Positions 1 through 31,346 of a stretch of 32,000 bases of DNA are shown piece by piece; the first letter of the stretch is position 1; each line of letters opens with the position of its first letter. The notes beneath the pieces were generated by a model, which saw nothing but the letters and a program-made list of their open reading frames with translations, ran no database searches and was not told the origin of the DNA. Origin of the DNA: Paenibacillus selenitireducens (GTDB taxonomy: Bacteria > Bacillota > Bacilli > Paenibacillales > Paenibacillaceae); assembly GCF_002021565.1 (NCBI RefSeq), contig NZ_MSZX01000002.1:334554-366553 (forward strand), read 5' to 3'. The translations under genes and the position numbers were made by a program.

Positions 1-261
1 CAGCCCACTACCTCAACCGGTATTATCTGTGCTGATTCCATAGATTCATCTGATCACAGGTGATGAAATCCTGCGAATGAGTGAGTATATGTGAGATAAA
101 CCCTTAAAAACGAGGGAAGGGACACGTTAGCTCAATAATCAACTATAACGCGGCTGCCGGTACAAATCGGTAGCCGCGTTATGCTTACTGGCAGTATAGT
201 TCGATAACTCCAGGGATAAAAATCCATAAATGTGAGACAACCGAGTGATTAAGAAAATAGC

Positions 262-301
262 GCCACCCTCGATCGGGGCCCCCGCCCCGGCCGAGGGTGG
301 C
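262..301. other. GC-rich nested hairpin (terminator-like or REP-like)
   Basis: GCCACCCTCG (262-271) pairs with CGAGGGTGGC (292-301). An inner CGGGGC (274-279) pairs with GCCCCG (284-289). There is no adjacent T-run, so function is unclear. Confidence 0.3.
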
Positions 302-451
302 TAACTGGAAATAAAACTTTTTATTACATATCGTTTCTCTCGATAGTGATAACTGTTTAAAAAAGATACTTCATTCCTTACTAACCCCCAGATAAGATAT
401 CGCTGTTTTAAATAACAAACAGGGAGCATAAGGATAAATTAGACTGTCAGG

Positions 452-667
452 GTGGGGGGGATGGCAGAGAAGGTGAATGAGTATGCGGACATTGATAAGC
501 GTGTATCATTGTTCATTGAAGGCAAACACGGAAAGATCGGCATCATTATCCCTGATCATGCACCAACTTATGAAGAGTGGAAAGAATTTAGAGAATCATT
601 AGTTGAAATTGCTTTGAACATCGTTAGGAATAAGCAAATATCATTAAAAAAGGAAACCGCTGAGTAA
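452..667 (+). CDS. hypothetical small protein (68-71 aa)
   Basis: ORF from the track. A purine-rich GGTGGGGGGG run lies just upstream of the ATG at 461; 452 is a GTG alternative. A strong intrinsic terminator follows. No family recognised. Confidence 0.4.
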   Translation: MGGMAEKVNEYADIDKRVSLFIEGKHGKIGIIIPDHAPTYEEWKEFRESLVEIALNIVRNKQISLKKETAE

Positions 668-687
668 GCTGGTTTCCTTTATTTTTT
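649..687 (+). terminator. intrinsic terminator after the small ORF
   Basis: AAAGGAAACC (649-658) pairs with GGTTTCCTTT (671-680) and is followed by TTTTTT (682-687). Confidence 0.6.
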
Positions 688-731
688 GAAGAACCTCAAT
701 AATTAACTTTTGGCACAATCAATATGAGTAA

Positions 732-812
732 GACAAAACAACCCGGGATATTGCGGGACAATTGTTTATCAGTGAGAAAACCGTGCGCAATCACATTTCG
801 AACGTGATGTAG
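732..812 (+). pseudogene. gerE: upstream segment of a split gerE-type LuxR-family HTH regulator gene (equivalent to GerE residues ~26-51); ends in a junction-created TAG
   Basis: Frame-3 translation reads DKTTRDIAGQLFISEKTVRNHISNVM then a stop. This matches the GerE HTH core (DKTTKEIASELFISEKTVRNHISNAM, B. subtilis sequence from memory). An in-frame TAA at 729-731 and the absence of a start codon mean the N-terminal ~25 codons are missing here. Confidence 0.8.
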
Positions 813-829
813 TATGAAACACACCCTTG
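776..829 (+). other. putative attL (host B arm + AA crossover + element P-prime arm)
   Basis: CATTTCG-AA-CGTGATG is centred on 801-802. The CGAACGT core (799-805) is identical to 14819-14825. The P-prime arm 803-826 is an imperfect inverted copy of 14797-14820. Confidence 0.6.
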
Positions 830-961
830 ATAATACAAAAATGTGTCTTAGGTCCCTTGTTTTGGAGGGGGTAATACTCTCGAAAACAGGGATAAATATC
901 CATCATACGACATTTTTTACTAAATATTGGAATTTTGAATATTCCATATTTAAGGATTGTC

Positions 962-970
962 TGCTACAAT
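962..970 (+). promoter_or_regulatory. possible extended -10 element (TGcTACAAT) for the pilus operon
   Basis: TGCTACAAT lies in the AT-rich 215-bp leader, ~55 bp upstream of the first pilus gene. No good -35 box at 17-bp spacing. Confidence 0.2.
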
Positions 971-1024
971 TGCGATGAAATTGGAGAATATTGTATGAAA
1001 TAGATATAGGAATGAGGGTGAACG

Positions 1025-2107
1025 ATGATTAAGAACGAACGGGGATTTGCTCTCCCGATGGTGCTGATCTTAGTAACAGCTTTATCCATTTTAGGAATGG
1101 CCCTTCTTGGAGTAAGCGTAAGCCAAGCTGCCCGAACCGTTCATCAGGAGAAAAAAGAGCAGGCATTCTACATAGCGAAGTCTGGTGCAGATGCTGTTGC
1201 GTCATATATTATTGATCACTATAATCCTGTCTCGGTGAGTACCACTGATGAAATAAAGAACCTCAATAAGGGTTACTTAGAGCAGGACATATCGCTAGGA
1301 ACGGGCACTTTTCGGGCAAATGTTACGAGAGGCCCCGACGATACAATTGTTATTTCTTCCAAGGGAACCTTGGGGAAAGTTACGAACCAGGCTTCGTTGA
1401 CGTTAGGAATGGATGAACCTGTGGTGACGATAGATCACGCGATTCTTGCATCTAAGGATATTGTAAATACAGGGGAGACCATCGTGAACAACGGAGGTAA
1501 TATTGCTGCCGGTGGGAGCATCAGCGGGGATGAAATCAAATTAGATGGGGGGAGTGCAGAATCAAATTATTCAGGAGCTTTTCCTCCTGCAATCCCTTTT
1601 CCAGATATAACAGGTTGGATCACTAAAACATTAGTGATTAATGCCTCAATAAGTGAATCGGCTTATTACGGAAGTTATTTGTCTTCAGACGCTGTATTTG
1701 AAATCAACATGACGAATAACAAGGACATGCATATCGTTTTCAAGAAGTTTGAACCAGCTACGACTGTTATTAATGTGACAGGTACCGGCAACGGGATCAT
1801 TCATCTTTATATGGATAATATCAAAGTAGCTGCATCGTTTACGATTAACAATTTATTGAGTAAAAAGGTAATTCTTCATGTCAAAGATTCAATCGATCTC
1901 AATGGGTCTTTTAATTTGCACGGTGTCCTTTTGTATGCTCCCACGGCGGAATACACTTCTACGAATGGGTCGATAGATCTAAAAGGTGCAATGGTTACTA
2001 AAAAAGTGACATTACAAGGTAGTAATGTGATCAACTACGACGCCTCCATCGCCAATCTCATCAAAGAATCTCGCAAATTTGAACGCAAGAACTGGAGAAA
2101 TTCCTAG
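1025..2107 (+). CDS. PilX/PilK-like large minor pilin (pilus tip or initiation subunit)
   Basis: N-terminus ERG/FALPMVLILVTALSILGMALLG is a prepilin-like hydrophobic helix without Glu at +5. The C-terminal pattern LHGVLLYAP...GSIDLKGAMV...NYD is typical of PilX/TadG-like proteins. RBS GAGGGTG precedes the start. Confidence 0.7.
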   Translation: MIKNERGFALPMVLILVTALSILGMALLGVSVSQAARTVHQEKKEQAFYIAKSGADAVASYIIDHYNPVSVSTTDEIKNLNKGYLEQDISLGTGTFRANVTRGPDDTIVISSKGTLGKVTNQASLTLGMDEPVVTIDHAILASKDIVNTGETIVNNGGNIAAGGSISGDEIKLDGGSAESNYSGAFPPAIPFPDITGWITKTLVINASISESAYYGSYLSSDAVFEINMTNNKDMHIVFKKFEPATTVINVTGTGNGIIHLYMDNIKVAASFTINNLLSKKVILHVKDSIDLNGSFNLHGVLLYAPTAEYTSTNGSIDLKGAMVTKKVTLQGSNVINYDASIANLIKESRKFERKNWRNS

Positions 2108-2125
2108 CCAATCGGAGTGAATGAC

Positions 2126-2581
2126 ATGAACGTACGAAAACAAGAAGAAGGATTTACGTTAATCGAAGTTTTGGCGTCTTTTGTCCTCCTTGTGATCATG
2201 GCAACGGTGTTAGTGAGCCTATTCTCCAACGGATTTCGCTCCATTGACAAATTCGGTGAGCGAAGCGAGCAAATGCATTTAGCTCGGCAAGAAGTGGAAC
2301 AAGCTACAGCCGGCACAGGAAGTAACCTGACTATCCATCAAATTAAAGGTACCGGCCAACTGAAAATTGAAGGCGAGACGGTTGAGAAACAGATTAGCGG
2401 AACTTCGGGCAGCAAAATGATATTGTTCATTCCAACACCAACGCCATGGAAGACAGGTGTATCGTACACCTTAGATGACCAGGTTCGATATAACGGGAAA
2501 AACTATCGATGTGTCATCCCGCATACCTCGAATGCCAGCAACAAGCCAACCAGTACAAGTTCTCCATGGGTTACCATGTAA
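2126..2581 (+). CDS. minor pilin (prepilin-type N-terminus) fused to a C-terminal CBM5/12-type chitin-binding module
   Basis: The leader ends in G/FTLIEVL, giving Glu at +5. The C-terminus WKTGVSYTLDDQVRYNGKNYRCVIPHTSNASNKPTSTSSPW fits the W..Y..G..V.YNGK.Y.C..PHTS...P...W pattern of ChtBD3/CBM5-12. The track start 2117 is a GTG; the ATG at 2126 has GGAG at good spacing. Confidence 0.8.
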   Translation: MNVRKQEEGFTLIEVLASFVLLVIMATVLVSLFSNGFRSIDKFGERSEQMHLARQEVEQATAGTGSNLTIHQIKGTGQLKIEGETVEKQISGTSGSKMILFIPTPTPWKTGVSYTLDDQVRYNGKNYRCVIPHTSNASNKPTSTSSPWVTM

Positions 2582-2644
2582 CTTGTATCCTATATATACT
2601 TTACTCTTCACGGAGAATTCGGATCTAAGAATAGGGGATGGTAT

Positions 2645-3202
2645 ATGCGATACGTGAAGCTTGACCAGAAAGGCCTTACGATCATTGAACTGTTAGCCGC
2701 CATCGTACTGCTTACGATTGTTTTGTCTCTAGCTTTTTCATCCTATGCGTTTGGGGTCAAGTCCTTTCAACGCGCGAATGAGCAGAGCGAGCTTCAAGAT
2801 CAGGTACGAATTGTCTCTCATGTTATTACCAGCAAATTGCGATATGCCAGCGAAGTCGAACTTTTATCATCCTGTCCTACGAACCTTACTGAAGGATTTA
2901 ACTACATCTGTATGAATTCGAACAAAAAAACCATTGATCTACACACCTACGATAAAACAACATCCGCTCACAAGCTTCAAAGCCTAAATACCGCAAGCTC
3001 CAAACATCCAATCACCTACGACATCGCGTTCCAAAAAACAAATGACCATCTCTTATCCTACAGCCTGAAGAGCATGGCTGATCAACAAAAATTTGACGTA
3101 CAATCTGAGATCTTGTTATTGAATTTGGATTTGAATGCAGTATCCATAAAAATAACGGGAAGCACACCTTATCAAGGCATTGCTTTCAAAGAAAACGCTT
3201 GA
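2645..3202 (+). CDS. minor pilin (prepilin-type N-terminal cleavage/methylation domain)
   Basis: QKG/LTIIELLAAIVLLTIVLSLAF has Glu at +5. RBS GGGGA is upstream. The gene sits between the other pilin genes and pilB. Confidence 0.75.
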   Translation: MRYVKLDQKGLTIIELLAAIVLLTIVLSLAFSSYAFGVKSFQRANEQSELQDQVRIVSHVITSKLRYASEVELLSSCPTNLTEGFNYICMNSNKKTIDLHTYDKTTSAHKLQSLNTASSKHPITYDIAFQKTNDHLLSYSLKSMADQQKFDVQSEILLLNLDLNAVSIKITGSTPYQGIAFKENA

Positions 3203-3227
3203 ACTTTTTGGACGATAAATCCAAGGG

Positions 3228-4904
3228 ATGAGAGGTGAAAACGTGAATAAACCTCGGAAACGCATGGGGGATCTACTCGTTGAGTCCGGACTCCTTACGA
3301 ATGAACAGCTGCAAATTGCCCTGAATGAAAAGAAACCAACACAAAAGCTAGGGGAAACGTTATTGCAGCTCGGGTTCATCACGGAGCAAAGACTTATTGA
3401 GGTTCTAGAGTTTCAATTAGGTATTCCTTATGTCAGCTTATTCAAATACCCGATAGATACCAAGCTGTTAAGCATCGTGTCCAAAGAAACCGCCGAACGT
3501 AACAAGCTAATCCCTCTGAAAAGAGAAAGCAATAAGCTATTTGTCGCCATGGCTGACCCAATGGATTTTTATGCGATTGATGATTTGCGGCTCTCGACGG
3601 GTTTTCAGATCGAAGTGTCCATTGCGACGAAGGAAGACATTCATAAAGCCATCAGCAAATATTACAGCCTAGTGGATAACATGGAAGACCTGTTAGGCGC
3701 AGACCTCAAGTTTAAAGAGAAGGATGAAGATACGGTTACCGATGAAGACTCTCCGGTCGTCAAATTGGTCAACCAAATGATTCTTGCAGCCTATCAGCAA
3801 AAAGCGAGTGATATTCACATCGATCCGCAAGAGTCAGATGTTGTGATTCGATATCGGGTTGACGGGATCCTGAGGACAGAACGGAAATTTGCGAAACAAA
3901 TGCTGAGCATGATCGTGGCAAGGATCAAAATTTTATCCAATCTGAACATTACCGAATTCAGAATTCCGCAAGACGGTCGGATCAAAATTAATCTGGATTC
4001 CAATGCGATAGATCTTCGGGTTTCCACACTGCCAACAGTCTATGGCGAAAAGGTCGTCATGCGAATTCTCGACATCGGAAGTTCAGCTATAGATTTGAAA
4101 AGAATGAATTTTCATCCCACGAATTATGAACGTTTTGTGCGCATGATCGAAAAGCCGACAGGCATTGTGCTGATTACCGGTCCTACGGGTTCTGGCAAAT
4201 CTTCTACACTCTATTCCGCTTTGGGACAATTAAATTCGCCGGATGTCAACATTATTACCGTGGAAGATCCGGTGGAGTATCGGCTGGAAGGGGTTAATCA
4301 GGTTCAAGTCAATGTGAGTACCGGGATGACATTCTCGAAGGGATTGCGTGCGATTTTGCGTCAGGATCCGAACATCGTTATGGTCGGTGAAATTCGGGAT
4401 ACAGAGACAGCGGAGATTGCAGTTCGTGCTTCGTTAACAGGGCACTTAGTCTTGAGCACGATCCACACGAATGACGCGATCAGCACGATTACGAGATTAA
4501 TAGACATGGGAATTGAGCCTTTTCTCGTAGCTGCCTCGTTGTCTGGCGTCGTATCACAGAGGCTTGTCCGGCGCATTTGTCAGGAGTGTAAGACGCTGCA
4601 GCTTCCTTCGCAGCGGGAGACTGAAATTTTCGAAAAGCGAGGATTACAGATTGAGGCTGTCGCGAGAGGAAAAGGCTGCGGCGCTTGCAATATGACAGGC
4701 TACAAAGGAAGGATCGCTATTCATGAATTATTGGTGATCGATGATGAAATTCGCCGAATGATCATGAACAATCGTTCCATGGAACAGATCAAGGAGATCG
4801 CGGTGATGAAAGGAACCATTTTTTTAATTGATGATGGCTTAATTAAAGTAAAAGAAGGCTATACAACCACAGAAGAAGTCCTGCGCGTAGCCATCAGTGA
4901 GTAA
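3228..4904 (+). CDS. pilB: type IV pilus assembly ATPase PilB (GspE family) with N-terminal MshEN-type domain
   Basis: Walker A GPTGSGKSS, the tetracysteine motif CQEC...CGAC, and GspE-type N-terminal domains are present. An alternative GTG start at 3243 has a better RBS. Confidence 0.93.
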   Translation: MRGENVNKPRKRMGDLLVESGLLTNEQLQIALNEKKPTQKLGETLLQLGFITEQRLIEVLEFQLGIPYVSLFKYPIDTKLLSIVSKETAERNKLIPLKRESNKLFVAMADPMDFYAIDDLRLSTGFQIEVSIATKEDIHKAISKYYSLVDNMEDLLGADLKFKEKDEDTVTDEDSPVVKLVNQMILAAYQQKASDIHIDPQESDVVIRYRVDGILRTERKFAKQMLSMIVARIKILSNLNITEFRIPQDGRIKINLDSNAIDLRVSTLPTVYGEKVVMRILDIGSSAIDLKRMNFHPTNYERFVRMIEKPTGIVLITGPTGSGKSSTLYSALGQLNSPDVNIITVEDPVEYRLEGVNQVQVNVSTGMTFSKGLRAILRQDPNIVMVGEIRDTETAEIAVRASLTGHLVLSTIHTNDAISTITRLIDMGIEPFLVAASLSGVVSQRLVRRICQECKTLQLPSQRETEIFEKRGLQIEAVARGKGCGACNMTGYKGRIAIHELLVIDDEIRRMIMNNRSMEQIKEIAVMKGTIFLIDDGLIKVKEGYTTTEEVLRVAISE

Positions 4905-5952
4905 TGGGAAGGGGAAGCTGGAGCAATTGGAGCAATTATTACGAATGGCTTTTGAACAAAAAGCATCGGACTTGCACCTTACGGTAGGTGTACCACCCAT
5001 GATCCGAATCAATGGGGATCTCAAGCAATATGGCGAAGATAATTTGAAGCCCGAAGACACGATCAAGATGGCGAAGAGCATTATGACTCGAGATCAATGG
5101 GAGGTTTTGCAGGAAAAGAGAGAGCTGGATTTTTCCTTTGGGATTAAGGATATGACTCGATTCCGTGTGAATGTGTACCATCAACGTTCTCAAATAGGTA
5201 TCGCGCTCCGCCTTATACCAACAACCATCCCGGCATTGGATACTTTGCATGTACCGGAAGTTTTGCGTCAGCTAAGCACCAAAGCGCAAGGATTGATTCT
5301 CGTCACAGGCCCGACGGGAAGCGGCAAATCAACGACGCTCGCTTCGATGATCGATGACATGAACAAGAGAATGCGCAAACATGTTATTACGTTAGAGGAT
5401 CCGATTGAGTACTTGCACCGCAACCAATATTCCGTCATTAATCAACGGGAAATCGGACATGATTCGCATAGCTTTTCGAACGGACTGCGGGCCGCGCTAC
5501 GGCAAGATCCCGATGTCATCCTGGTTGGAGAGTTACGAGATCTAGAGACGATATCCATTGCCATTACAGCGGCAGAGACGGGGCACTTGGTGCTTGGAAC
5601 CTTACATACGCCGAACGCGCCTGCAACGATTGATCGTATTTTGGACGTGTTTCCAGCCAATCAGCAAGGTCAAATTCGGATTCAACTTGCATCTGTTTTG
5701 ATCGCAATTCTATCACAACGGCTTTTCCCGACCATCGACAATCGAAGCAGGCGCGTGGCAACGGAATTGTTAATTAATAATCATGCTGTTGCCAACTTGA
5801 TTCGGAATGAGAAAGTCCACCAAATCTATAACTTCATGCAGACGGGGAAATCCTTTGGCATGCATACCCTGGAAATGTCCATGAACGATTTGATCGAGAA
5901 AAAGGTGATTACTCGAGAGGTCGCAGCACCATATTTTAGGGAGATGAGTTAA
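4897..5952 (+). CDS. pilT: type IV pilus retraction ATPase PilT
   Basis: 351 aa with ASDLHL near the N-terminus, Walker A GPTGSGKST, and LVGELRD / GHLVLGTLHT motifs. The GTG start overlaps the pilB stop by 8 nt. Confidence 0.92.
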   Translation: MSNGKGKLEQLEQLLRMAFEQKASDLHLTVGVPPMIRINGDLKQYGEDNLKPEDTIKMAKSIMTRDQWEVLQEKRELDFSFGIKDMTRFRVNVYHQRSQIGIALRLIPTTIPALDTLHVPEVLRQLSTKAQGLILVTGPTGSGKSTTLASMIDDMNKRMRKHVITLEDPIEYLHRNQYSVINQREIGHDSHSFSNGLRAALRQDPDVILVGELRDLETISIAITAAETGHLVLGTLHTPNAPATIDRILDVFPANQQGQIRIQLASVLIAILSQRLFPTIDNRSRRVATELLINNHAVANLIRNEKVHQIYNFMQTGKSFGMHTLEMSMNDLIEKKVITREVAAPYFREMS

Positions 5953-7160
5953 TGGCTCAGTTTGCATATATCGGTCGTGATCGTGCCGGCAAGTCGCGTA
6001 AAGGGAAAGTTTCTGGTTCAACCCGGAAAGAAGTTGTCATGGAACTTCGCGAGAAAGGGATTGCCATTTCCGAGATCGTCGAGCTGGAAGCAAATGTGTT
6101 CAATACGGATATTACCATTGGCAACCCAGTTAAGACGCAAGATTTCGTGATTTACCTCCGTCAGTTTGCAACGTTAATCGTGGCCGGCGTGTCGGTTGCG
6201 GAAGCTACGAAGATATTGGCGGAACAGACCGCAAGTAAAGCTTTGCGAAAGGCACTAATCAATGTAGAGGAAGAATTACGATCTGGTAAACCGTTGTCAC
6301 TTGCTGCAGCCCTTCATCCAAAAATCTTTCCACCCATGTTCATTAATTTGGTACAAGCCGGGGAAGCCACGGGGAACTTGGATGAGACGCTGGAACGATT
6401 AGCTTCTTTTTTTGAGAAACAGCACTATACCGTCCAAAAGGTGAAGTCCGCACTAACTTATCCAATTGCCATCACGATTGTCGCCATTGGGGTCGTTATC
6501 TTCCTGCTTACCAAAATCGTGCCCACGTTTGCCTCGATGTTTATGCAATTCGATGCAGAATTACCGTGGATTACGAAGACCGTCTTGGCGATCAGTGACT
6601 GGATGCAGCGTTTTTGGTGGCTCATTATCTTGCTGATTGTAGGGATCGTGGTTGGCATCACAGTGGCGATGAGAAATCCATCCAGTAAATATTATCTTGA
6701 TCATGCCATTCTCAAAATCCCGATCTTTGGGAAGTTAGTGCAGAAATCCGTCATTGCCAGATTTACAAGAACATTAAGCTCGTTGTTTAAAAGCTCGGTT
6801 CCGATTCTGGATGCGCTAAGTATCGTAGACAAAGTCGTCATGAATGAAGTCATGAGTAGGGTGTTGAAGGAGTCTAGGGTCTCGCTCCAAGGAGGGAAAT
6901 CGCTGTCTGCTCCAATGAAGCAGCATTGGATATTTCCGCCGCTCGTAACACAGATGATCGCCATTGGGGAACAATCTGGTTCTCTCGATTTCATGTTGGA
7001 AAAGGTCGCGGATTTCTATGAGAAAGAAGTCGATGCGACGGCGGATGCGCTGAAAGGCTTAATCGAGCCGATCATGATCATCATGCTGGCAGGTATTGTT
7101 GGATTTATTGTGTTGTCAATTATCGTGCCGATGTTCGATATTTTCAACCATGTCAAATAG
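5952..7160 (+). CDS. pilC: type IV pilus platform protein PilC (GspF family)
   Basis: 402 aa polytopic protein with the duplicated GspF-type architecture. The ATG overlaps the pilT stop (TAATG). Confidence 0.92.
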   Translation: MAQFAYIGRDRAGKSRKGKVSGSTRKEVVMELREKGIAISEIVELEANVFNTDITIGNPVKTQDFVIYLRQFATLIVAGVSVAEATKILAEQTASKALRKALINVEEELRSGKPLSLAAALHPKIFPPMFINLVQAGEATGNLDETLERLASFFEKQHYTVQKVKSALTYPIAITIVAIGVVIFLLTKIVPTFASMFMQFDAELPWITKTVLAISDWMQRFWWLIILLIVGIVVGITVAMRNPSSKYYLDHAILKIPIFGKLVQKSVIARFTRTLSSLFKSSVPILDALSIVDKVVMNEVMSRVLKESRVSLQGGKSLSAPMKQHWIFPPLVTQMIAIGEQSGSLDFMLEKVADFYEKEVDATADALKGLIEPIMIIMLAGIVGFIVLSIIVPMFDIFNHVK

Positions 7161-7211
7161 GTTATAGTGGCAACATTATAATAGATTACTAATTTTATAG
7201 GAGGAATAAGT

Positions 7212-7745
7212 ATGTTACAAATGGCAATGAAAAGGGTCAAAAATGAGAAAGGGTTAACGCTGATTGAGTTACTGGCAGTGGTTGTTATTTTGGGGATCGT
7301 CGCGGCTATTGCGATACCTGCGATTGGGGGATTGATTGACAGAACGAAAAAAGACGCACATGTTGCGAATGCAATTCAAATGATAGCAGCTGCAAAAATG
7401 GCTGTTGTGGGTGATGAGAGAGCAAGACCTACCGCTACAACAATTACAAAATATATATCTTTAGACTGGTTAGTTGTAAATGGATATCTTGATCCAGTGA
7501 AGGATCCCGATGGTACAACGAATGGTTACTCAGTTGGTACTGCTGCTGCCACACCTCCACCTAGTACTGTAGCTACAGCAGGTTCCCATGTTTTAGCAAC
7601 ATTAACCACATCAACTGGTGCAATTTCTTATAGCGTATTTCTAAAAAATGATACACGCGGAGTACGAGAAACTGCAACTAGTACAGGTACTGCAGCTACT
7701 GACTACGTGAAAGAATCAACCGTGAACCGTGACGCAGTTAAATAG
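7212..7745 (+). CDS. pilA: major type IV pilin PilA
   Basis: NEKG/LTLIELLAVVVILGIVAAIAIPA is a canonical class III signal with Glu at +5. A strong AGGAGG RBS precedes the start. The C-terminal half is rich in Thr/Ser/Ala. A hairpin follows the gene. Confidence 0.88.
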   Translation: MLQMAMKRVKNEKGLTLIELLAVVVILGIVAAIAIPAIGGLIDRTKKDAHVANAIQMIAAAKMAVVGDERARPTATTITKYISLDWLVVNGYLDPVKDPDGTTNGYSVGTAAATPPPSTVATAGSHVLATLTTSTGAISYSVFLKNDTRGVRETATSTGTAATDYVKESTVNRDAVK

Positions 7746-7810
7746 GTCAACTCCATAGTCACTTGTGGCCTAGAAGTTAATCTTGTTACAATCAGACATC
7801 TATAACTAAT

Positions 7811-7833
7811 CACGCCCTCGTTAGGGGGGCGTG
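7811..7833 (+). terminator. hairpin after pilA (probable leaky terminator or attenuator)
   Basis: CACGCCC (7811-7817) pairs with GGGCGTG (7827-7833), followed only by a weak TT-rich tract. It lies between the major pilin gene and pilD. Confidence 0.4.
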
Positions 7834-7862
7834 TTATCCATTGTCCTAACTGGAGGCAAACC

Positions 7863-8615
7863 ATGACCGCGTTTTATTCCATTTATGCTGCGATTGCAGG
7901 TTTATTGTTAGGCTCCTTTTATAATGTGGTAGGTTTACGGGTTCCCTTAGGCGAATCGATCATTCGACCACGCTCGCATTGCACGACATGCCAACGTACA
8001 CTGGGAGCCAGCGAGCTGGTCCCTTTTTTTTCTTATCTTTTCTTAAGGGGTGCCTGCCGGGGATGCGGTACGAAAATATCATTCCTTTATCCGCTAACCG
8101 AAATGGGGACTGCGCTGTTATTTGTTAGCATGCCATGGTTCATCGGCTGGTCGCCGGAATTATTCGTCGCATGGGCGTTAATCTCCCTGTTGATTATCAT
8201 TTGTATTTCAGATCTTCGGTATATGTTAATTCCGAACAAAGTGTTGCTGGTCTTTTCGGTTATTTTTCTCGGATTGCGTCTCCTCCTTCCAGTAGATCCT
8301 TGGTGGGATATGTTCCTGGGTGCCGGTGTTGGCTTTGCGTTGCTGTTACTTATCGCGATCGTGAGCAAGAACGGCATGGGCGGAGGAGATATTAAATTGT
8401 TTGCCGTCCTCGGCATGGTCTTAGGATGGAAAGGTGTATTACTTGCTTTCCTGTTATCTTGCTGCTATGGCACACTCATCGGCATCGTTGGAATGCTTCT
8501 CGGGAAAGTACGAAGAGGGAAGCCAATGCCGTTCGGACCTGCCATTGCATTAGGCACATTAACTGCATATTTGTGGGGAGAAGCACTTCTTACATGGTAT
8601 TACCAGTTTCTATGA
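7863..8615 (+). CDS. pilD: prepilin peptidase / N-methyltransferase PilD (A24 family)
   Basis: N-terminal Cys pairs CTTC...CRGC are present. The catalytic Asp motifs are ISDLRYMLIPN and GGGDIKLF. The protein is polytopic. Confidence 0.92.
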   Translation: MTAFYSIYAAIAGLLLGSFYNVVGLRVPLGESIIRPRSHCTTCQRTLGASELVPFFSYLFLRGACRGCGTKISFLYPLTEMGTALLFVSMPWFIGWSPELFVAWALISLLIIICISDLRYMLIPNKVLLVFSVIFLGLRLLLPVDPWWDMFLGAGVGFALLLLIAIVSKNGMGGGDIKLFAVLGMVLGWKGVLLAFLLSCCYGTLIGIVGMLLGKVRRGKPMPFGPAIALGTLTAYLWGEALLTWYYQFL

Positions 8616-8633
8616 TGTAGTGGAGGAGAAAAG

Positions 8634-9698
8634 ATGAGAGCAAGTCGGACAACGCGTGTAAATCAAGAACATCATACCCATGTAGCAAACATTGTGAACA
8701 GAAAGCAGCCGAAAAAGAAAATGGTCAGCTTGATGATCAAAGACCATGTCATTCGATATATGGATGCCAAGCGACCGAATTTGCGGGGAGCAACCGCCTT
8801 CGGGGAATATGATTTGCCTTCAGGCATCATTCATGAAGGCAGGATTGCAGAGCCGGATCGGTTGCGTACCATTCTGAAGGATTGCATTCAAAAGTGGAAA
8901 CTCAAAGACCGAGAAGTGCAGTTTATTGTCCCGGATTCTGTCGTGATCGTACGGAAGATTGAGATTTCGGCGGAGATCGAGGAGGAGGAGATCAAGGGAC
9001 ATCTATATTTGGAATTAGGAACGAACATCCATCTTCCCTTTGAGGATCCGATATTTGATATTGATTTTCTAGGACGCTCCGATGAGAAACAAGAAATTCT
9101 ATTATTTGCCGCACCGGAGCAGATTGTTAACGAATACGCACAGATCTTGACCAGCGCAGGTCTGAAGCCTGTTGCAGCCGATGTGTCTTCGCTGGCCATC
9201 TATCGTTTATTTTATAAAGTGAATGATGAATTGGAATTGGACATTGTCTCGGAAGCACCGGTTCTATCCGTTCAATTCGACCTGCAGACGGTAACGGTAG
9301 GCGTCATTCATAAGCATAAATTAATGCTTCTTCGTCAATTTCGGATGAATCTATCCATCGATAACTGGGAACGGCAAACGAACAAAAGAGATGTCAATAC
9401 ACCGGTGTGGATCGGCGATGAGAGCTACTTAACCTATGAAATTAATGTAATGATCGGAGAGATTCAGCGCGTCATCAGCTTCTATCGTTCCGTTACGAAT
9501 CATCATGAAGATGAGATTGAAACGATAATATTAACGGGAGATTATCCGTATTTAGAGGATATCGCAACCAATCTGCATCAACATTTTGAAAAAATGCCTT
9601 TTACGTTCTCAAAAGAATTGTTCGAGACGCAATCGAAGGAACTCGTTCCACCGAAATATTATTTGCCGCTAGGATTAGCCCTAAAGGGGGGCGTCTAA
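8634..9698 (+). CDS. pilM: type IV pilus assembly protein PilM (actin-like ATPase fold)
   Basis: 354 aa, GGAGGAG RBS, position directly upstream of pilN with an overlapping stop/start, and PilM-like sequence organisation. Confidence 0.8.
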   Translation: MRASRTTRVNQEHHTHVANIVNRKQPKKKMVSLMIKDHVIRYMDAKRPNLRGATAFGEYDLPSGIIHEGRIAEPDRLRTILKDCIQKWKLKDREVQFIVPDSVVIVRKIEISAEIEEEEIKGHLYLELGTNIHLPFEDPIFDIDFLGRSDEKQEILLFAAPEQIVNEYAQILTSAGLKPVAADVSSLAIYRLFYKVNDELELDIVSEAPVLSVQFDLQTVTVGVIHKHKLMLLRQFRMNLSIDNWERQTNKRDVNTPVWIGDESYLTYEINVMIGEIQRVISFYRSVTNHHEDEIETIILTGDYPYLEDIATNLHQHFEKMPFTFSKELFETQSKELVPPKYYLPLGLALKGGV

Positions 9699-10264
9699 TG
9701 CTGAGTGAGATTAACTTGCTCCCCCAACGGGAGCAGCGAAGCATTTTTTTTGTCATTGGGATCACGGTCATATTGGCTTTCGGTTTGCTTAGCACTGGCG
9801 TTCTCTTCTTCCAATATCAGTCCCTGAAGACGGATCAAGATCGACAACAGGCGGAAGCGAAGACGGTCGAGAAAATGATTGAAATCGAATCGCAAAAACT
9901 CCTGCAAGGCGCGAGTACCTCGGAAGTAGGTCAATATGAACAGATTGTTCACACGATCGAGCAACTGCCGGTGGATACGATCCGAATTCTTGACCAATTA
10001 TCTGCGGCCTTGCCTCAGAGCGGCTTCTTTACTTCCTATTCTTATCAGGATCCTGGAACGGTGTCGGTGATTGCGGATTTCGGGACATCAGAGGATGCTG
10101 CGCAATATCTTTATCATTTAACATATGCGGATTGGGTACGCAAAATCGAGATCAGCTCTCTAGTAAAACAAGATAGTGGGATAAAGGTCCTTTACAAAGC
10201 GACGTATACGCTCGAATTGAAACGGGATGTATTCGCTGAAGTGAAAGGAGCGGGTACAGAATGA
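9698..10264 (+). CDS. pilN: type IV pilus assembly protein PilN
   Basis: The N-terminal EINLLPQRE signature is followed by a single TM helix. The gene is translationally coupled to pilM and pilO. Confidence 0.85.
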   Translation: MLSEINLLPQREQRSIFFVIGITVILAFGLLSTGVLFFQYQSLKTDQDRQQAEAKTVEKMIEIESQKLLQGASTSEVGQYEQIVHTIEQLPVDTIRILDQLSAALPQSGFFTSYSYQDPGTVSVIADFGTSEDAAQYLYHLTYADWVRKIEISSLVKQDSGIKVLYKATYTLELKRDVFAEVKGAGTE

Positions 10265-11037
10265 ACGCGAAACAGGTAAGAATATTAACCTTGGCTGTCT
10301 CGTGTATTCTCATCCTTTCCGGGTTGCTATTGTTTTATTTCAATCGTATCCAGCCTACACAAAGCCAAGTGAAGACGTTGAAAAGTAAAATTGCAACAGA
10401 TAAAAAGGTGCTGGAAAAGCTGCAATCGCAGGCCCATGAACAGCAGCAGAGTAAGGCGGATCTTCTGGAGTTGCAGCGTAAGGTTCCTGTCGAAGCCTTT
10501 GTGGACCAGATGATTCTCGATCTACGGAAGGATGAACAACAATCCAAGAGTAAGATTCGTAATATGGGGTTGAGCTATACGAATACATCATTAAATGAAT
10601 TGAGTCAAGTGATAGGTATTCCTAACCTACAATCACCGAACGCGACAGTTTCGCAGCCTGTCAATACAGCAGCATCAAATGAAGGAACTTCAACGGTGCC
10701 AGCTGATACGAGTGCCAATCCAGCACCATCAAGCGAAAATCCCGCAGTGCAGCTGGAAGTTTACAAAATAGGCCTCACCTTAAGCGTTGAATCACCGACC
10801 TATAACGATTTCAAAACCTTTGTACTTGGGATCCAACAACTAGACCGCGTTATTCAAATTGATGCCATATCATTCACGGATACCGCCAACACCTATAACC
10901 TCACGGTATCCGCATTCTATGCGCCGCAATTCCAAGGATTTGAGGAACGGCTTCCACGGGCCTCGTTCCCGGCACCAAGCGGCAAGACTGTACCGATTCA
11001 AGTGACGAATCCCGTAACAGAACCTGCAGGAACTTAA
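10261..11037 (+). CDS. pilO: type IV pilus assembly protein PilO-like
   Basis: An N-terminal TM helix and coiled-coil segment precede a conserved C-terminal domain. There is an internal Ser/Thr/Pro/Asn-rich insert. The start overlaps the pilN stop (ATGA). Confidence 0.7.
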   Translation: MNAKQVRILTLAVSCILILSGLLLFYFNRIQPTQSQVKTLKSKIATDKKVLEKLQSQAHEQQQSKADLLELQRKVPVEAFVDQMILDLRKDEQQSKSKIRNMGLSYTNTSLNELSQVIGIPNLQSPNATVSQPVNTAASNEGTSTVPADTSANPAPSSENPAVQLEVYKIGLTLSVESPTYNDFKTFVLGIQQLDRVIQIDAISFTDTANTYNLTVSAFYAPQFQGFEERLPRASFPAPSGKTVPIQVTNPVTEPAGT

Positions 11038-11056
11038 GAAAGAGGGTGAACGTACG

Positions 11057-12499
11057 ATGTCCATTCGTGTTCTCATTGTTGATGATACGAAATTTCTACG
11101 CCTGATGTTAACGGATATATTAACAAAATCCGGGTATGAGGTTGTAGGTCAAGCAGAGAACGGTGTTATTGCCGTCGACAAGTTCAGAGAATTGCGGCCC
11201 GATCTGGTGATTATGGATATTACGATGCCAGAGATGGACGGAATTACGGCGTTAAAGGAGATTAGGGCCATCGAGCCGCAGTCTGTCATCTTAATCTGCT
11301 CTGCGATGAGTCAGCGAGATCTCATTTCCAAGGCATTAAAGGCAGGCGCGAACAATTATGTGATGAAGCCGTTCGAACCTGAGCGCGTCAAGGAGATCAT
11401 TCTTGAAGTTATGCCACTAATGGAGAACAACAAAAAAGAAAAAGCATCCATAAAAGCTCCGATTGAGCCGGAACCTGTGCAAGAATCCGTGGTGACGGAA
11501 GACCAGGCAACTAAATTGCGCAAATCGTTTGCTGAACAGACCAGTGAACAGTATATCTTATCTGAAGCAGCCGTAGCGCCGATAGAAGACTCGTTTCCAG
11601 AACCAGAACTAGAATCACCAATAGAACCTCGCCTTGAAGTGAAGGAAGCACTTGTCTCGGAAACGCCCGACTTGGTGGAACAGGTAGAACCCATGTTGGA
11701 AGCAAGAATATCTTCCGAAGCGGAAGAAGAGTTCGGCACATTACTCGAAGGCATTGAAAATCCAACCCCAACAGGGATCACTGCGGATCATGAACGAAGC
11801 AACCCTGGCGTATTGGAAGAAATAACAGCTGCATCTGCGGAAGCTGCAGTTTCGGTTACCGCTGTCAACGAGATAAATATCTCCGCGGAATCCCTCCCGG
11901 GTGATTTTACGCATCTGTCCAAACGTCTGGAGGCTGAGCTCAAGCATACCCCTGAGGAGCCTATCTCTAATACATCAGAAGAGCAGCAAGCTAGCGCAGA
12001 GGAAGTATCTTTAGACGAGAACAACGAAGAACAGACTGGAACGAATCATCTTGATGAGAATGAACTTGATGAACAAGAAGGATCACCTTCCCGTTCATCG
12101 AATCCTGCCGTCTGGTTCGAACAATTGATTTTTTCCAATTCCAATAAAACGGGGGATGCTGAGATGGCAAGAAATCCGCAAATGATAGATGCTGAGGTCA
12201 GACAGGAACATCATGTGGCAACAATCGATCAAGGTAGCAGTTCAAGCATGCTGCCAGAACTGAAACGCAAAAATATGCGGAACTTCGCAAGCAGTATCAT
12301 GTGCAAATTTTCAGAACAGGTCGATGGGAAGGAAATGGACTATTTCGTTGTCTACAACGAATTTGACAAGTCGATTCGGATCGATATGATCTCTCCCGAT
12401 GAGAAGCGCAACAGCATTCAATTATCGCTCGACGGGTTCACTTTTATTATGGAATGGCTCGAACAGAAGGGCGTACGCATCGATAAAGTCTTAGATTAA
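11057..12499 (+). CDS. CheY-like response regulator receiver fused to a ~230-aa acidic low-complexity linker and an uncharacterised C-terminal domain
   Basis: Residues 1-120 align closely with Bacillus CheY as I remember it (ILIVDD, PDLV.MDITMPEMDGITALKEI, CSAM, VMKPF). The rest is Glu/Pro/Ser-rich, followed by a ~100-aa globular-looking tail. RBS AGAGGGTG precedes the start. Confidence 0.85.
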   Translation: MSIRVLIVDDTKFLRLMLTDILTKSGYEVVGQAENGVIAVDKFRELRPDLVIMDITMPEMDGITALKEIRAIEPQSVILICSAMSQRDLISKALKAGANNYVMKPFEPERVKEIILEVMPLMENNKKEKASIKAPIEPEPVQESVVTEDQATKLRKSFAEQTSEQYILSEAAVAPIEDSFPEPELESPIEPRLEVKEALVSETPDLVEQVEPMLEARISSEAEEEFGTLLEGIENPTPTGITADHERSNPGVLEEITAASAEAAVSVTAVNEINISAESLPGDFTHLSKRLEAELKHTPEEPISNTSEEQQASAEEVSLDENNEEQTGTNHLDENELDEQEGSPSRSSNPAVWFEQLIFSNSNKTGDAEMARNPQMIDAEVRQEHHVATIDQGSSSSMLPELKRKNMRNFASSIMCKFSEQVDGKEMDYFVVYNEFDKSIRIDMISPDEKRNSIQLSLDGFTFIMEWLEQKGVRIDKVLD

Positions 12500-12529
12500 T
12501 AGAAGCCATCAAAGTTAAGGAGGACAATC

Positions 12530-12817
12530 ATGAAGAACAAGCAAATCAGTCAATTAACTTTGTGCGATTCTTATAACCATTCTCAGATCATACCGATCGC
12601 CAATGCGAGGCAAATCTTTGACAAAATCGTTAAGGTCTACGTCAGCCGTGAAGATATCTATAATCACTCGAAGACGCCGAGGGAGTTCCAAGCCTATCAA
12701 AACATTGATAGCGAAACCTTGCTTATTGTCGTGAGTATCCGCAGTGATTGGTGGACGCCATGGAAAGGCATGGTGACGGAAGACGTTTATTTTTATCGAG
12801 AACCTTTTGCGCAATGA
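12530..12817 (+). CDS. hypothetical protein (95 aa); candidate accessory or directionality factor
   Basis: A strong AAGGAGG RBS lies 7 nt upstream of the ATG. No family recognised. The gene sits between the pilus/regulator block and the recombinase gene. Confidence 0.5.
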   Translation: MKNKQISQLTLCDSYNHSQIIPIANARQIFDKIVKVYVSREDIYNHSKTPREFQAYQNIDSETLLIVVSIRSDWWTPWKGMVTEDVYFYREPFAQ

Positions 12818-12908
12818 GGTACAGAAGTGAATGAAGAAGCGGGCAACTCCAATCAGGGAGAGGCTCGTTTCTTTTTTTTGTTCTATAAAGGCGCGGAAAG
12901 GAGCGGTT

Positions 12909-13061
12909 ATGGTACAAGACGGCAGGTTCATAGACATAATTATCACAAGCGGAGAGGAGCGGACCGAATGCCTAAAGACGCCAAACCATCGTATCGAATA
13001 CATGTACATCCCGGAAAGGAGAATAGAGAACACATCATGGATGAGCTTGCCAAGCAAGTGA
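12909..13061 (+). CDS. possible small ORF (~50 aa)
   Basis: This is an internal ATG of the 12831 ORF, preceded by AAAGGAG at 6-nt spacing. No family recognised. The competing overlapping frames look compositionally implausible. Confidence 0.2.
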   Translation: MVQDGRFIDIIITSGEERTECLKTPNHRIEYMYIPERRIENTSWMSLPSK

Positions 13062-13199
13062 TTCAGCGCAATGTAGTGGATTTTCACATGCAAAACGAAA
13101 GGGTAAAAAAAATCCCCCTACCAGGACGAGCAGGCTGAACCAATAAAGGAAGCAGACATTTTCTAATGATGAAAATGAATCGTCATGGGGGAGGCGATA

Positions 13200-14762
13200 A
13201 TGAGAGCAGCCATTTATGTACGTGTTAGTACGACCAAAGACAGTCAGAAGGATAGCCCGGAACATCAAATTGCAGCTTGTAAATATTTTGCGGAGGACAT
13301 GGGGTGGGAGACAGCGGAAGACATGATATATGAAGACCGCGAATCTGGGACGAATATTACCGATAGGCTAGCGATTCAGCAAGCGTTAAAGGATGCACAT
13401 CAGGGCGCATTCCAAGTGATTATTTTCGCCGCATTATCGCGGTTCGCACGTGATATTGGGGATTCGATCAATCTCAAGCGTAAGCTGGTGAATGCCCTTC
13501 GGATTCGCCTCATCTCCATCGACGACCATTATGATTCCGACCGAGATGATGAGATGTTATTCTCGATTATCTCGAGTATTAATCAGTCCTTGAGCGAGCA
13601 GATCAGCCGAAGTACACGTCGGGGGAAGCGGGAATCCGCGTTAAAAGGGAATTTTACAGGAAATCGGCCACCGTATGGATATGACAAAGAAACGAGAAAT
13701 GGCTTAAAGACATTGGTACCCAATGAGAACCAGAAGATGGTTGTTGAGACGATTTTCCAACTGTATACAGCCAATCATTTCGGGGAGAAATCTATCGCTG
13801 CTTATTTGAATGATCAAGGAATCCCCTCCCCGAAGGATGGAAAATGGGGTATTACCACGATACAACGCATCTTGCAAAACGAAGCCTATGTCGGGAAAAA
13901 TCGTTCCTCGAAATTTGAAATTCGAAAAGTGTATACCAATGTCGATGATATGACAGAACGTAAAAAAGTATTAGTTCAAAAGCCAAAACGCGAATGGCGT
14001 TACGCGCATAACAGCTGGACGCATCAAGGCATTATTGATGAAGCAACGTTCCGGCTTGCTGAGAATCTTCGCTTGCAACGCGGCGGTGGACAACGTGGCG
14101 GGCCTCGCCAAAAGGTTAATGTTTTCGCGGGAATGATGAAATGCGCACATTGCGGTTCCTCCATGGTCAGCATGAAATCCACACGTCGAATTCGAGAGCA
14201 ATCGAGACGAGATTACCGATACCTCATTTGTTCCAGAAGAAGAAGGCAAGGAGAGTCAGGCTGCTGCAACAATTATTGGCTGCCGTATGATCCCTTTCAC
14301 GAAGATCTCATCCAATGCATATCACAAATATTACGCAGTACATTTTCGCCAGAGGAGCTGTTGGAGAAACATAAGCGTCTTGTCCAAGTCACGCACACGG
14401 ATCTCGAATCCGAAATGAAAAAACGCAAAAAGTGGATTATCGAAAATCGTAAATGTCTGATGGAGCTTCGCAAAGAACGACTCAAAGGGCATGTGTTGGA
14501 TGAACATCAATATGAATTAGAAAAAAGTCATTATGAGCGGGAAATCGTGCAGCATGAGAGCAGACTCATTCAACTTCAGCAGGAATGGCAGCGTAAAACG
14601 GATATGACGGATTTATACGAGAAGACGATGGAACGGTTAAATGATCTGTTGAATGTATCCTTCGAAACCTTTGATGATAGCCAACTTACATTGAAAAAAC
14701 TCATCTCTCGTATAGAAGCGGATCGTCAGGGAAATGTACATGTGTTCATGACATTTGATTAG
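13200..14762 (+). CDS. large serine recombinase (resolvase catalytic domain + recombinase domain + zinc ribbon + coiled coil), SpoIVCA/SprA-like
   Basis: The sequence shows MRAAIYVRVST with catalytic Ser10, ALSRFARD, GNRPPYGYDKE, the Cys cluster CAHCGS...CSRRRRQGESGCC, and a C-terminal heptad-rich region. The ATG at 13200 has a GGGGAGG RBS; the track start is 13185. Confidence 0.9.
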   Translation: MRAAIYVRVSTTKDSQKDSPEHQIAACKYFAEDMGWETAEDMIYEDRESGTNITDRLAIQQALKDAHQGAFQVIIFAALSRFARDIGDSINLKRKLVNALRIRLISIDDHYDSDRDDEMLFSIISSINQSLSEQISRSTRRGKRESALKGNFTGNRPPYGYDKETRNGLKTLVPNENQKMVVETIFQLYTANHFGEKSIAAYLNDQGIPSPKDGKWGITTIQRILQNEAYVGKNRSSKFEIRKVYTNVDDMTERKKVLVQKPKREWRYAHNSWTHQGIIDEATFRLAENLRLQRGGGQRGGPRQKVNVFAGMMKCAHCGSSMVSMKSTRRIREQSRRDYRYLICSRRRRQGESGCCNNYWLPYDPFHEDLIQCISQILRSTFSPEELLEKHKRLVQVTHTDLESEMKKRKKWIIENRKCLMELRKERLKGHVLDEHQYELEKSHYEREIVQHESRLIQLQQEWQRKTDMTDLYEKTMERLNDLLNVSFETFDDSQLTLKKLISRIEADRQGNVHVFMTFD

Positions 14763-14795
14763 CTTGCTGTTCTTGCGGATACGCTCCTCTATATT

Positions 14796-14848
14796 CATGT
14801 GTGCTTCAAACCCCATCACGAACGTAATGCAGAAACTGAATGTAAAGG
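14796..14848 (+). other. putative attR (element P arm + AA crossover + host B-prime arm)
   Basis: CATCACG-AA-CGTAATG is centred on 14821-14822. By hand alignment, the P arm 14797-14820 matches the reverse complement of 803-826 at 18 of 24 positions. Confidence 0.6.
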
Positions 14849-14901
14849 GTCGTTCGCAAGCGGTTGTCGAGTTGATCAAGCTTGGGGAGCTAAAAATCTA
14901 A
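14821..14901 (+). pseudogene. gerE: downstream segment of the split gerE-type gene (equivalent to GerE residues ~49-74, with stop)
   Basis: The translation NVMQKLNVKGRSQAVVELIKLGELKI-stop matches the GerE C-terminus (NAMQKLGVKGRSQAVVELLRMGELEL, from memory). There is no start codon or RBS of its own. Confidence 0.8.
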
Positions 14902-14980
14902 TCTGCTTGTCACTCTAATTGACCTTCTTTACCTTTGTTTCCTATGGAAGCAGGGGTGAGGGAGGTTCTTTGATTTCCGC

Positions 14981-30364: not shown

Positions 30365-31045
30365 GTGATCGGTCAACCCATTCGAGCCATACCTTTAGCG
30401 GTGCGTATGATCCCTAATGTAGATGCGGGATTGGCGCGTCATCTTCCGCTAGATACTTCAATTCGCAGCTTAGGCTTGATCACTTCCAGCATAGACGATG
30501 TCGGTTATACCGCGATTGATGAAGCGACGAAACGTGCAGCCGTAGATGTCGTGTATGCAAAGTCCTTTTATGCAGGTTCGGGTCATGCATCGGGACCGCT
30601 GTCTGGTGAGTTCATCGGCATCATCGGAGGGGCAACGCCTGCCGAAGTGGAGAGTGGGCTCGCGGCTGCCATGGAAGTGATGGAGCATGGCGCGTGTTTC
30701 TATGCGCTGAATGAGGAAGGTACCCATGCGTATTATGCACACGTCATTTCGCGATCAGGCCGTTATTTATCCGGGGTTGCGGGAATTCCTGAAGGGGATC
30801 CGATTGCGTATCTCATAGCTCCGCCGCTCGAAGCCATGGTCGGACTGGATGCCGCCTTGAAGGCTGCGGATGTGAAGCTCCAGACATTTTACGGACCACC
30901 GACGGAGACGAACTTTGCCGGTGGATTACTAACAGGGAGCCAGTCGGCCTGCATGGCTGCGGCGCAAGCTTTTCAGTCTGCGGTAAAAGAGGTTGTCTTG
31001 ACCCCGCATGGTATCACGCTGGGGTCAGGAGGAGGTCATCGATGA
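30365..31045 (+). CDS. eutL: bacterial microcompartment shell protein, tandem-BMC trimer type (EutL)
   Basis: Matches E. coli EutL along its length from memory (IRSLGLI...DDV.Y.A.DEATK.A.V.VVY..S.YAG, YLSS/GVAGI..GDP.AYL.APPLEA..G.DAALK.ADV.L, FLTGSQ.AC.AA..AF). GTG start, with GGAG upstream. Confidence 0.85.
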   Translation: MIGQPIRAIPLAVRMIPNVDAGLARHLPLDTSIRSLGLITSSIDDVGYTAIDEATKRAAVDVVYAKSFYAGSGHASGPLSGEFIGIIGGATPAEVESGLAAAMEVMEHGACFYALNEEGTHAYYAHVISRSGRYLSGVAGIPEGDPIAYLIAPPLEAMVGLDAALKAADVKLQTFYGPPTETNFAGGLLTGSQSACMAAAQAFQSAVKEVVLTPHGITLGSGGGHR

Positions 31046-31329: not shown

Positions 31330-31346
31330 GGGGTGCCCACGACGAG

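Follow-up and report, generated by a model that had tools for sequence, protein, structure and literature searches.

Elements that split a sporulation gene and carry a large serine recombinase are known in Bacillota. Skin (in sigK) and SPbeta (in spsM) of Bacillus subtilis and skinCd of C. difficile are prophages or prophage remnants; they are excised in the mother cell, where the interrupted gene is restored, and are kept in the spore. A non-prophage counterpart, the gerE-intervening element gin of Bacillus cereus ATCC 10987 and B. toyonensis, was described by Abe et al. in 2017 (PMC5595907); its excision during sporulation, the recombinase GirC and the 42-aa directionality factor GirX were demonstrated experimentally, and its 9-bp core, CATCTCAAA, encodes Ile-Ser-Asn 47-49 and holds the predicted cleavage position (PMC5595907). 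Phages enter gerE as well, since integration of a Xenia-type phage into the gerE of Paenibacillus larvae has been observed experimentally (PMC12453123). The present analysis concerns a 32,000-nucleotide stretch of the Paenibacillus selenitireducens genome (contig NZ_MSZX01000002.1, called the window below), in which gerE is interrupted by a 14,020-bp element with a complete type IV pilus (T4P) operon. It is likely that this is a gerE-intervening element of the gin type, composed of a phage-derived minimal recombination unit and a cargo slot that holds the complete 12-kb T4P operon.

The correspondence with gin extends to the anatomy of the locus. Both elements interrupt gerE, a gene of 225 bp, at its Ile-Ser-Asn codons, carry a large serine recombinase and a very small partner open reading frame (ORF), have an imperfect inverted repeat round a short common core and contain no phage structural genes. 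Translation of the window revealed gerE fragments flanking positions 803-14822 on both sides; the crossover codons, Ile-Ser-Asn 47-49 of gerE, are those of the B. cereus gin, and a comparison with the published site (PMC5595907) indicated that the position of the attL core coincides with CATCTCAAA. The ends 803 and 14822, which an earlier note on this DNA had proposed for the element, sit exactly on the common core of attL and attR (Table 1). The centre of the att palindrome is the AA of TCGAACGT, the position at which cleavage is predicted in gin, and the two element arms of the window are palindromic to one another in 17 of their 21 positions. An alignment of attL and attR from 14 elements indicated a conserved gerE arm, CAYATYTCSAAYGT, in both sites and element arms that reconstitute a palindromic attP, GTTTCAAACCACAT-core-ATGTGGTTTGAAAC. 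Given these arms conserved in 14 elements, and a T4P operon located elsewhere in five genomes, it is extremely improbable that the pilus operon is native here and that the gerE-like fragments arose by chance or are left from unrelated LuxR-type genes, an idea for which the shortness of the fragments speaks and nothing else.

The two elements differ in size (28.6 kb for gin versus 14 kb), in the number of recombinases (three versus one) and in the restriction-modification system and recJ, which gin possesses and the window element does not. Peculiar to the window are the genus Paenibacillus, the complete T4P operon as cargo and a truncated 5' part of gerE; excision has been demonstrated for gin and is proposed here by analogy. 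The recombinase of the window is likened to GirC as a large serine recombinase, and the small ORF to GirX by position and size. Skin, SPbeta and skinCd share with the window the sporulation gene split by an element with a large serine recombinase, and are distinguished from it by their prophage nature and other target genes, the window element having cellular cargo and gerE as its target.

The T4P operon is intact. Pfam searches revealed the complete component set of Gram-positive T4P (PilB, PilT, PilC, PilD, PilM/N/O, major and minor N_methyl pilins), all genes of the element lie on the + strand, and their lengths equal those of the homologues in six other genomes; the operon is presumably expressed in vegetative cells. 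The earlier note had listed the pilins, pilB/T/C/A/D/M/N/O, a regulator and the recombinase, all on the + strand, and Pfam confirmed every one of them. It had also described an element bounded by a recombinase within gerE, in which a whole T4P machine takes the place of phage modules, and this description holds: the profile searches that it had called for were run against Pfam and PHROGs and found no phage module. PHROGs matches of the element ORFs were confined to integrase, pilin and REC-domain families, and neither database assigned to these ORFs any capsid, portal, terminase, tail, lysis or phage replication family, so that a prophage identity was ruled out. The features that define conjugative or mobilisable elements (relaxase, coupling protein, type IV secretion system or oriT) had no Pfam match in any ORF of 803-14822. 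Rfam and tRNA scans detected no RNA genes in the window, and the element is therefore not a tRNA-targeting island.

The second minor pilin bears a C-terminal CBM5/12 module, which is annotated in the corresponding protein of every related operon (L081-L084, L086, L087) and suggests a pilus predicted to bind chitin or another polysaccharide. By its components, including PilB with the MshEN domain, PilT, PilC, pilins, PilD and PilM/N/O, the operon resembles the T4P of P. thiaminolyticus Mbale and of Clostridium. The Mbale operon, a proven virulence factor (PMC9765702), is also alike in its size of ~12 kb and in its variable presence and position, the comparison being one of component set, size and distribution; the published account connects it neither with gerE nor with a recombinase (PMC9765702). 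A sigma-70 promoter scan found nothing convincing for the T4P leader or the recombinase module. Two other ORFs were rejected as genes. ORF 814-978 has no family matches, sits in the conserved T4P leader and has matches in L082 that are split across frames, features by which it is probably non-coding; the minus-strand 179-aa ORF 12554-13093 has no family matches either.

Table 1. Positions of the gerE fragments, attachment sites, recombination unit and T4P genes in the window.
Feature	Position	Strand	Evidence or remark
gerE 5' remnant	728..809	+	codons ~25-50 (DKTT...ISNVM), 26 codons left; 732-809 encodes DKTTRDIAGQLFISEKTVRNHISNVM
attL	775..830	+	gerE arm, core TCGAACGT 798-805, central AA 801-802, element arm GATGTAGTATGAAACACACCC
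T4P block	864..12884	+	homologous to free-standing Paenibacillus T4P operons (nucleotide comparison)
T4P leader	864-1024	+	conserved, 160 bp, within T4P block
PilX_N/DUF7305 minor-pilin-like protein	1025..2107	+	Pfam
Minor pilin, N_methyl and C-terminal CBM5/12 carbohydrate (chitin)-binding module	2117..2581	+	Pfam
Minor pilin (N_methyl)	2645..3202	+	Pfam
PilB assembly ATPase, MshEN+T2SSE	3228..4904	+	Pfam
PilT retraction ATPase	4897..5952	+	Pfam
PilC platform protein	5952..7160	+	Pfam
PilA major pilin	7212..7745	+	Pfam, PHROGs
PilD prepilin peptidase	7863..8615	+	Pfam
PilM alignment protein	8634-9698	+	Pfam
PilN alignment protein	9698-10264	+	Pfam
PilO alignment protein	10261-11037	+	Pfam
REC-domain (CheY-like) protein, long acidic tail	11057..12499	+	T4P operon member in every genome seen
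95-aa ORF, last gene of T4P block	12530..12817	+	87-96% identical in free-standing operons
Promoter-like box GGTTATGGTACAAGA ... CATAGACAT	12905..12937	+	nearly invariant alignment columns across 10 loci; upstream of 56-aa ORF
56-aa conserved ORF (MPKDAKPSYRIHVH...DELAKQVIQR)	12968..13138	+	upstream of recombinase
Large serine recombinase	13185..14762	+	Pfam Resolvase+Recombinase+Zn_ribbon_recom
attR	14795..14850	+	element arm GTGTGCTTCAAACCCCATCAC, core ACGAACGT 14818-14825, central AA 14821-14822, gerE arm
gerE 3' fragment	14823..14901	+	codons ~50-74 and stop; 14824-14901 encodes VMQKLNVKGRSQAVVELIKLGELKI-stop

A comparison with free-standing T4P operons indicates where the two parts of the element meet. 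The T4P homology stops at 12884 and the recombination unit begins within ~20 bp to the right; on the left side, 54 bp, containing the attL arm, lie between the crossover and the T4P block. Judged by these sequence boundaries, the region is a composite of a 12-kb T4P block and a minimal recombination unit, which comprises ~12900-14822 and the 54 bp at the left end. The stand-alone operon, from the leader through the 95-aa ORF, was found in five genomes (Paenibacillus sp. N3/727, L082; P. faecalis, L083, with the 98%-identical L087; P. uliginis, L084; and a metagenome-assembled genome (MAG), L086). Within the DNA seen, no gerE fragment or recombinase accompanies these blocks and their flanking genes differ; despite the different flanks, the copies are 93-98% identical at the nucleotide level. 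Near-identical blocks with differing flanks and no recombinase suggest that the block moves by a route independent of this recombinase, in agreement with the strain-variable 12-14-kb T4P insertion of P. thiaminolyticus (PMC9765702). A homologous FAD-oxidoreductase gene is located upstream of the block in L082 (8269-9455) and downstream of it in L087 (11995-13180).

A second T4P operon inside gerE was found in Paenibacillus sp. 1001270B_150601_E10 (E10; JADMOL010000002.1, overlapping loci L081 and L025), in an element of ~14.4 kb with the order full gerE 5' part (a 66-aa GerE-family ORF), 193-bp spacer, T4P operon, terminator, small ORF, recombinase, gerE 3' part; the gerE pieces of L081 and L025 together give the full ORF. 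The layout is thus repeated, and the arrangement in the window is not a one-off accident. PilB, PilT and PilC of E10 and the window are 84-88% identical and the recombinases 46%, which implies that the recombination unit was swapped or that the operon was captured twice. In the closest relative, P. terrigena, an element of 2.6 kb interrupts gerE at the identical site, no T4P genes occur within 9 kb, and no P. terrigena protein appeared among the homologues of PilX or of the REC-domain protein. The recombinase of the window is only 46% identical to that of P. terrigena; it is 69-70% identical to the enzymes of P. allorhizosphaerae and Fontibacillus, and 66-70% if Cohnella and other Paenibacillus are included.

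The distant recombinase and missing T4P of P. terrigena, the nearer enzymes in Cohnella, Fontibacillus and other Paenibacillus, the near-identity of T4P blocks between differently flanked genomes and the strain-variable insertion in P. thiaminolyticus (PMC9765702) are the features expected of a pilus island that is transferred from cell to cell and uses gerE as attB, its sporulation-linked excision being incidental or absent. Such an island seems rather unlikely, because the element has no conjugation, replication or packaging genes in the Pfam and PHROGs scans, the stand-alone blocks lack the recombinase and must travel otherwise, and the recombinases and pilus proteins of the two T4P-bearing elements have different histories. 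The earlier note had offered developmental excision and a recombinase-mobilised island as an either/or; the two are not exclusive. The case that it had named as a refutation, the same pilus locus beside an uninterrupted gerE and with no att-like ends, was not encountered; the survey of relatives that it proposed yielded the split gerE of P. terrigena with no pilus genes, the five stand-alone operons away from gerE and recombinase, and the repeated layout of E10. A T4P operon native to this site, with intact gerE in relatives, is contradicted by P. terrigena and by the stand-alone operons.

The recombination unit belongs to a widespread family. An alignment of recombinase homologues, searched against 185,579 species genomes, revealed more than 40 loci in Paenibacillaceae, Bacillaceae and Alicyclobacillaceae that carry the unit at the same gerE codon; the genera returned were Paenibacillus, Cohnella, Fontibacillus, Gorillibacterium, Aneurinibacillus, Brevibacillus-like, Mesobacillus, Niallia, Neobacillus and Peribacillus, in addition to the Alicyclobacillaceae. 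The gerE 3' part lies downstream of the recombinase in nearly all loci L001-L046 and directly adjacent to it in about half; in the remainder it is 1-7 kb away or, in some Alicyclobacillaceae, on the opposite strand. The gerE 5' fragment is also present in 20 loci, and 13 complete elements, of 2.5-15.4 kb, were contained in the fetched DNA. The recombinases of different lineages are 40-53% identical, and the family is old and diverse. In the Alicyclobacillaceae-type loci L036, L038 and L039 (Sulfoacidibacillus, Ferroacidibacillus and a Bacillota MAG) the recombinase is on the strand opposite to gerE, unlike in the Paenibacillus layout.

A survey of 74 ORFs from the 13 complete Paenibacillaceae and Alicyclobacillaceae elements revealed ABC sugar-transport permeases and binding proteins, histidine kinases, AraC-type response regulators, DNA methylases, sigma-54 activators, aldehyde and alcohol dehydrogenases and asparagine synthase as cargo; phage structural families were absent from the 25 most frequent families listed per scan. 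The usual cargo of these elements is accordingly cellular, the pilus operon being an example. The earlier note, which was not aware of a described case, is not supported on this point, as the non-prophage gin had been shown in B. cereus (PMC5595907) and cellular cargo is the norm in the 13 elements.

The origin of the unit is suggested by phages of P. larvae. Compared with the integrases of Fernvirus phages such as Likha, Xenia and Shelly, the recombinase of the window shows 43.7% identity over 99% of its length. In Likha (L088, MG727702.1) a palindromic attP with a gerE-like core, GTATTTCAAACCACATCTCCAATATAACATGTTTTGAAACAC, directly follows the serine integrase gene at ~4578-4620, and a 93-aa ORF just upstream of the integrase has the motif of the 56-aa ORF of the window, so the integrase, the attP and the small upstream ORF are all shared. 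The Fernvirus members are complete temperate phages of 40 kb, whereas the window element has no structural, lysis or replication genes. Intermediate gene contents occur in the closest type-A elements, L001, L002, L005, L006 and L008, where a DNA methylase, a RuvC-like resolvase and an AEP primase are found near the recombinase, as in phage, together with toxin-antitoxin genes; owing to these phage-like genes, the family spans true phages, remnants and minimal units.

In the window, the recombinase is of full length and keeps every family-invariant residue; its annotated start is probably 13200, giving 520 aa, as in P0001. An alignment of 400 nt upstream of the recombinase from 11 loci indicated three conserved features, namely a box GGTTATGGTACAAGA...CATA, a ribosome-binding site and the small ORF, which the conserved box (GGTACAAG...CATA) precedes. 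The motif (F/Y)xI..V/F......L.ELAK recurs in the small ORFs that lie before the recombinase genes in L025 and L018, two divergent modules, and before the integrase gene in phage Likha. The box can be likened to a SpoIIID site (GGACAAG) next to a -10 element of the mother-cell sigma factors (CATA), if the B. subtilis consensus sequences are taken to apply.

If the element works as gin does, the following course of events may be suggested. The small factor and the recombinase would be produced in the sporulating mother cell, a cell type and a timing proposed by analogy with gin, skin and SPbeta; attL and attR would then recombine at the AA in the centre of TCGAACGT, releasing the 14,020-bp element as a circle and joining the two gerE pieces. 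The forespore genome would be unchanged, and the pilus genes would be inherited and available to vegetative cells. For the terminal mother cell the loss of pilus genes should be free of cost; this would account for the acceptance of almost any operon in the cargo slot.

The left part of gerE in the window does not conform to this scheme. The earlier note was right that gerE fragments flank the element on both sides; it overlooked that the 5' piece is truncated to codons ~25-50. The junction itself is in register with a complete 3' piece, after which a terminator-like hairpin follows at 14923-14965. The gerE homology begins at nt 728, and an in-frame TAA (729-731) has been created at the junction. 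In 20 of the 20 other loci with a gerE 5' fragment, by comparison, the ~24 leading codons are present and the sequence runs from ...KFLLTNREREVFELLVQ into DKTT...ISNVM. A six-frame search of the whole window revealed neither the N-terminal motif of gerE nor another LuxR-type helix-turn-helix. When the window was searched for repeats that might mark a duplicated junction or insertion sequence ends near 727/728, nothing above chance level emerged. To the left of 727/728 lie a terminator (~640-690) and an unrelated 71-aa ORF (452-667), which has no family matches in Pfam or PHROGs. Synteny with P. terrigena spans the gerE 3' part and 90 nt of gerE 5'/attL and ends there; upstream of gerE, synteny is not conserved across species and is therefore uninformative about a deletion. 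The 78 nt that remain of the gerE 5' part differ from those of other species by 13-19 nt changes and 0-2 aa changes, and this almost purely synonymous divergence means that the truncation is recent or that the piece is still in use. A BLAST search of window positions 1-735 against all fetched loci gave a single match, a 57-nt stretch (66-122) that is 82% identical to L006 (P. fonticola) 16728-16784, ~2.4 kb downstream of the gerE 3' part there; the stretch has no Rfam match at gathering thresholds.

Several points weigh against the proposed gin-type behaviour of this copy. The first ~24 codons of gerE and its promoter are missing from the 5' piece, and the visible pieces cannot yield a full functional GerE upon excision; the truncation undermines a programmed reconstitution of gerE in P. 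selenitireducens, and one further possibility is that this copy still excises but yields a non-functional product. Excision of Paenibacillus elements is itself proposed by analogy. The assignment of the box to a mother-cell promoter is made by resemblance, and its spacing is at odds with the sigma-K consensus and agrees only loosely with that of sigma-E. The 56-aa ORF is a candidate recombination directionality factor (RDF), comparable with GirX by position and size, and the region between it and the recombinase (~13139-13184) lacks the conserved GC-rich hairpin (TCCCTTTGG...CCAGAGGGATTTGCTTTT) that occupies this place in other type-A modules (alignment columns 480-533). Decayed family members also make inactivity a realistic outcome: in L044 (P. 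cisolokensis; 5907-9401) the recombinase is broken into several short ORFs and in L031 (P. lemnae; 10001-11272) it stops at about residue 247, apparently through decay, and in both gerE is still split, which raises the question of how, or whether, such species make GerE.

It is accordingly possible, if somewhat doubtful, that the element in the window is a stranded fossil, with gerE turned into a pseudogene by a deletion or an illegitimate join at 727/728 and the pilus operon left in a dead island; the lost codons and promoter, the in-frame TAA, the break of P. terrigena synteny exactly at the truncation point and the decayed recombinases of L044 and L031 are what such a history would leave. 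The intact recombinase, small ORF, attL and attR do not suit it, nor do the near-synonymous changes in the remaining gerE 5' part. The same coding-like pattern, together with the clean break at codon 24/25 and the unrelated DNA on its left, could be read as a gerE in three pieces, where a second element upstream parts codons 1-24 and the promoter from the middle piece and both elements must excise. This arrangement is unlikely: inspection of the sequence at 727/728 revealed no att-like symmetry except for a 6-bp inverted repeat, no recombinase was found in window 1-730, and the 20 loci with a gerE 5' fragment offer no precedent.

The gin-type element proposed here does not represent a new class, non-prophage gerE-intervening elements having been known since 2017 and gerE-targeting phage integrases being known as well. 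What is new is the complete T4P machine as cargo, in two species, the architecture of a minimal unit with a cargo slot, and the broad Paenibacillaceae family with cellular cargo; a literature search found no paper on any of the three. Gin stands for non-viral DNA that is removed from a sporulation gene in the course of development, and this concept is thereby extended beyond the B. cereus group to a large family that ranges from true phages down to 2.5-kb minimal units. In two species, whose recombinases share only 46% identity, the cargo slot is seen to hold a complete intact T4P operon. The family offers a concrete system for asking how such elements capture cellular operons and whether the cargo is neutral to mother-cell excision, and it may help to explain how the T4P operon of Paenibacillus, whose role in virulence is proven in P. 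thiaminolyticus, moves between genomes. Many natural sets of a large serine integrase, attP and candidate RDF for one conserved 40-bp site are also made available for integrase engineering.

Tentatively, these observations can be combined into a wider picture, which is possible but on balance less likely than not. In Paenibacillaceae, gerE would be a general docking site at which interchangeable phage-derived units (recombinase, small factor and palindromic attP) bring in whole cellular operons, such as pili, sugar transporters and two-component systems; in P. selenitireducens and E10 a whole pilus machine would be cut from the mother-cell chromosome at each sporulation and inherited via the spore only, the gerE of P. 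selenitireducens perhaps being in three pieces. With PilT and the CBM5/12 minor pilin, the pilus would be able to retract and to bind chitin, and could aid DNA uptake and hence the spread of the element.

Two further observations concern the DNA to the right of gerE. At 30500-32000 of the window, a region with no Rfam match and not rRNA, the GC content rises to ~0.56. On the minus strand at 14981-17284 a 767-aa AraC/HTH_18 regulator is encoded, which, with the genes up to ~21000, lies in the order found in P. terrigena, the nucleotide identity being 86.7%; the right flank is thereby identified as ancestral chromosome.

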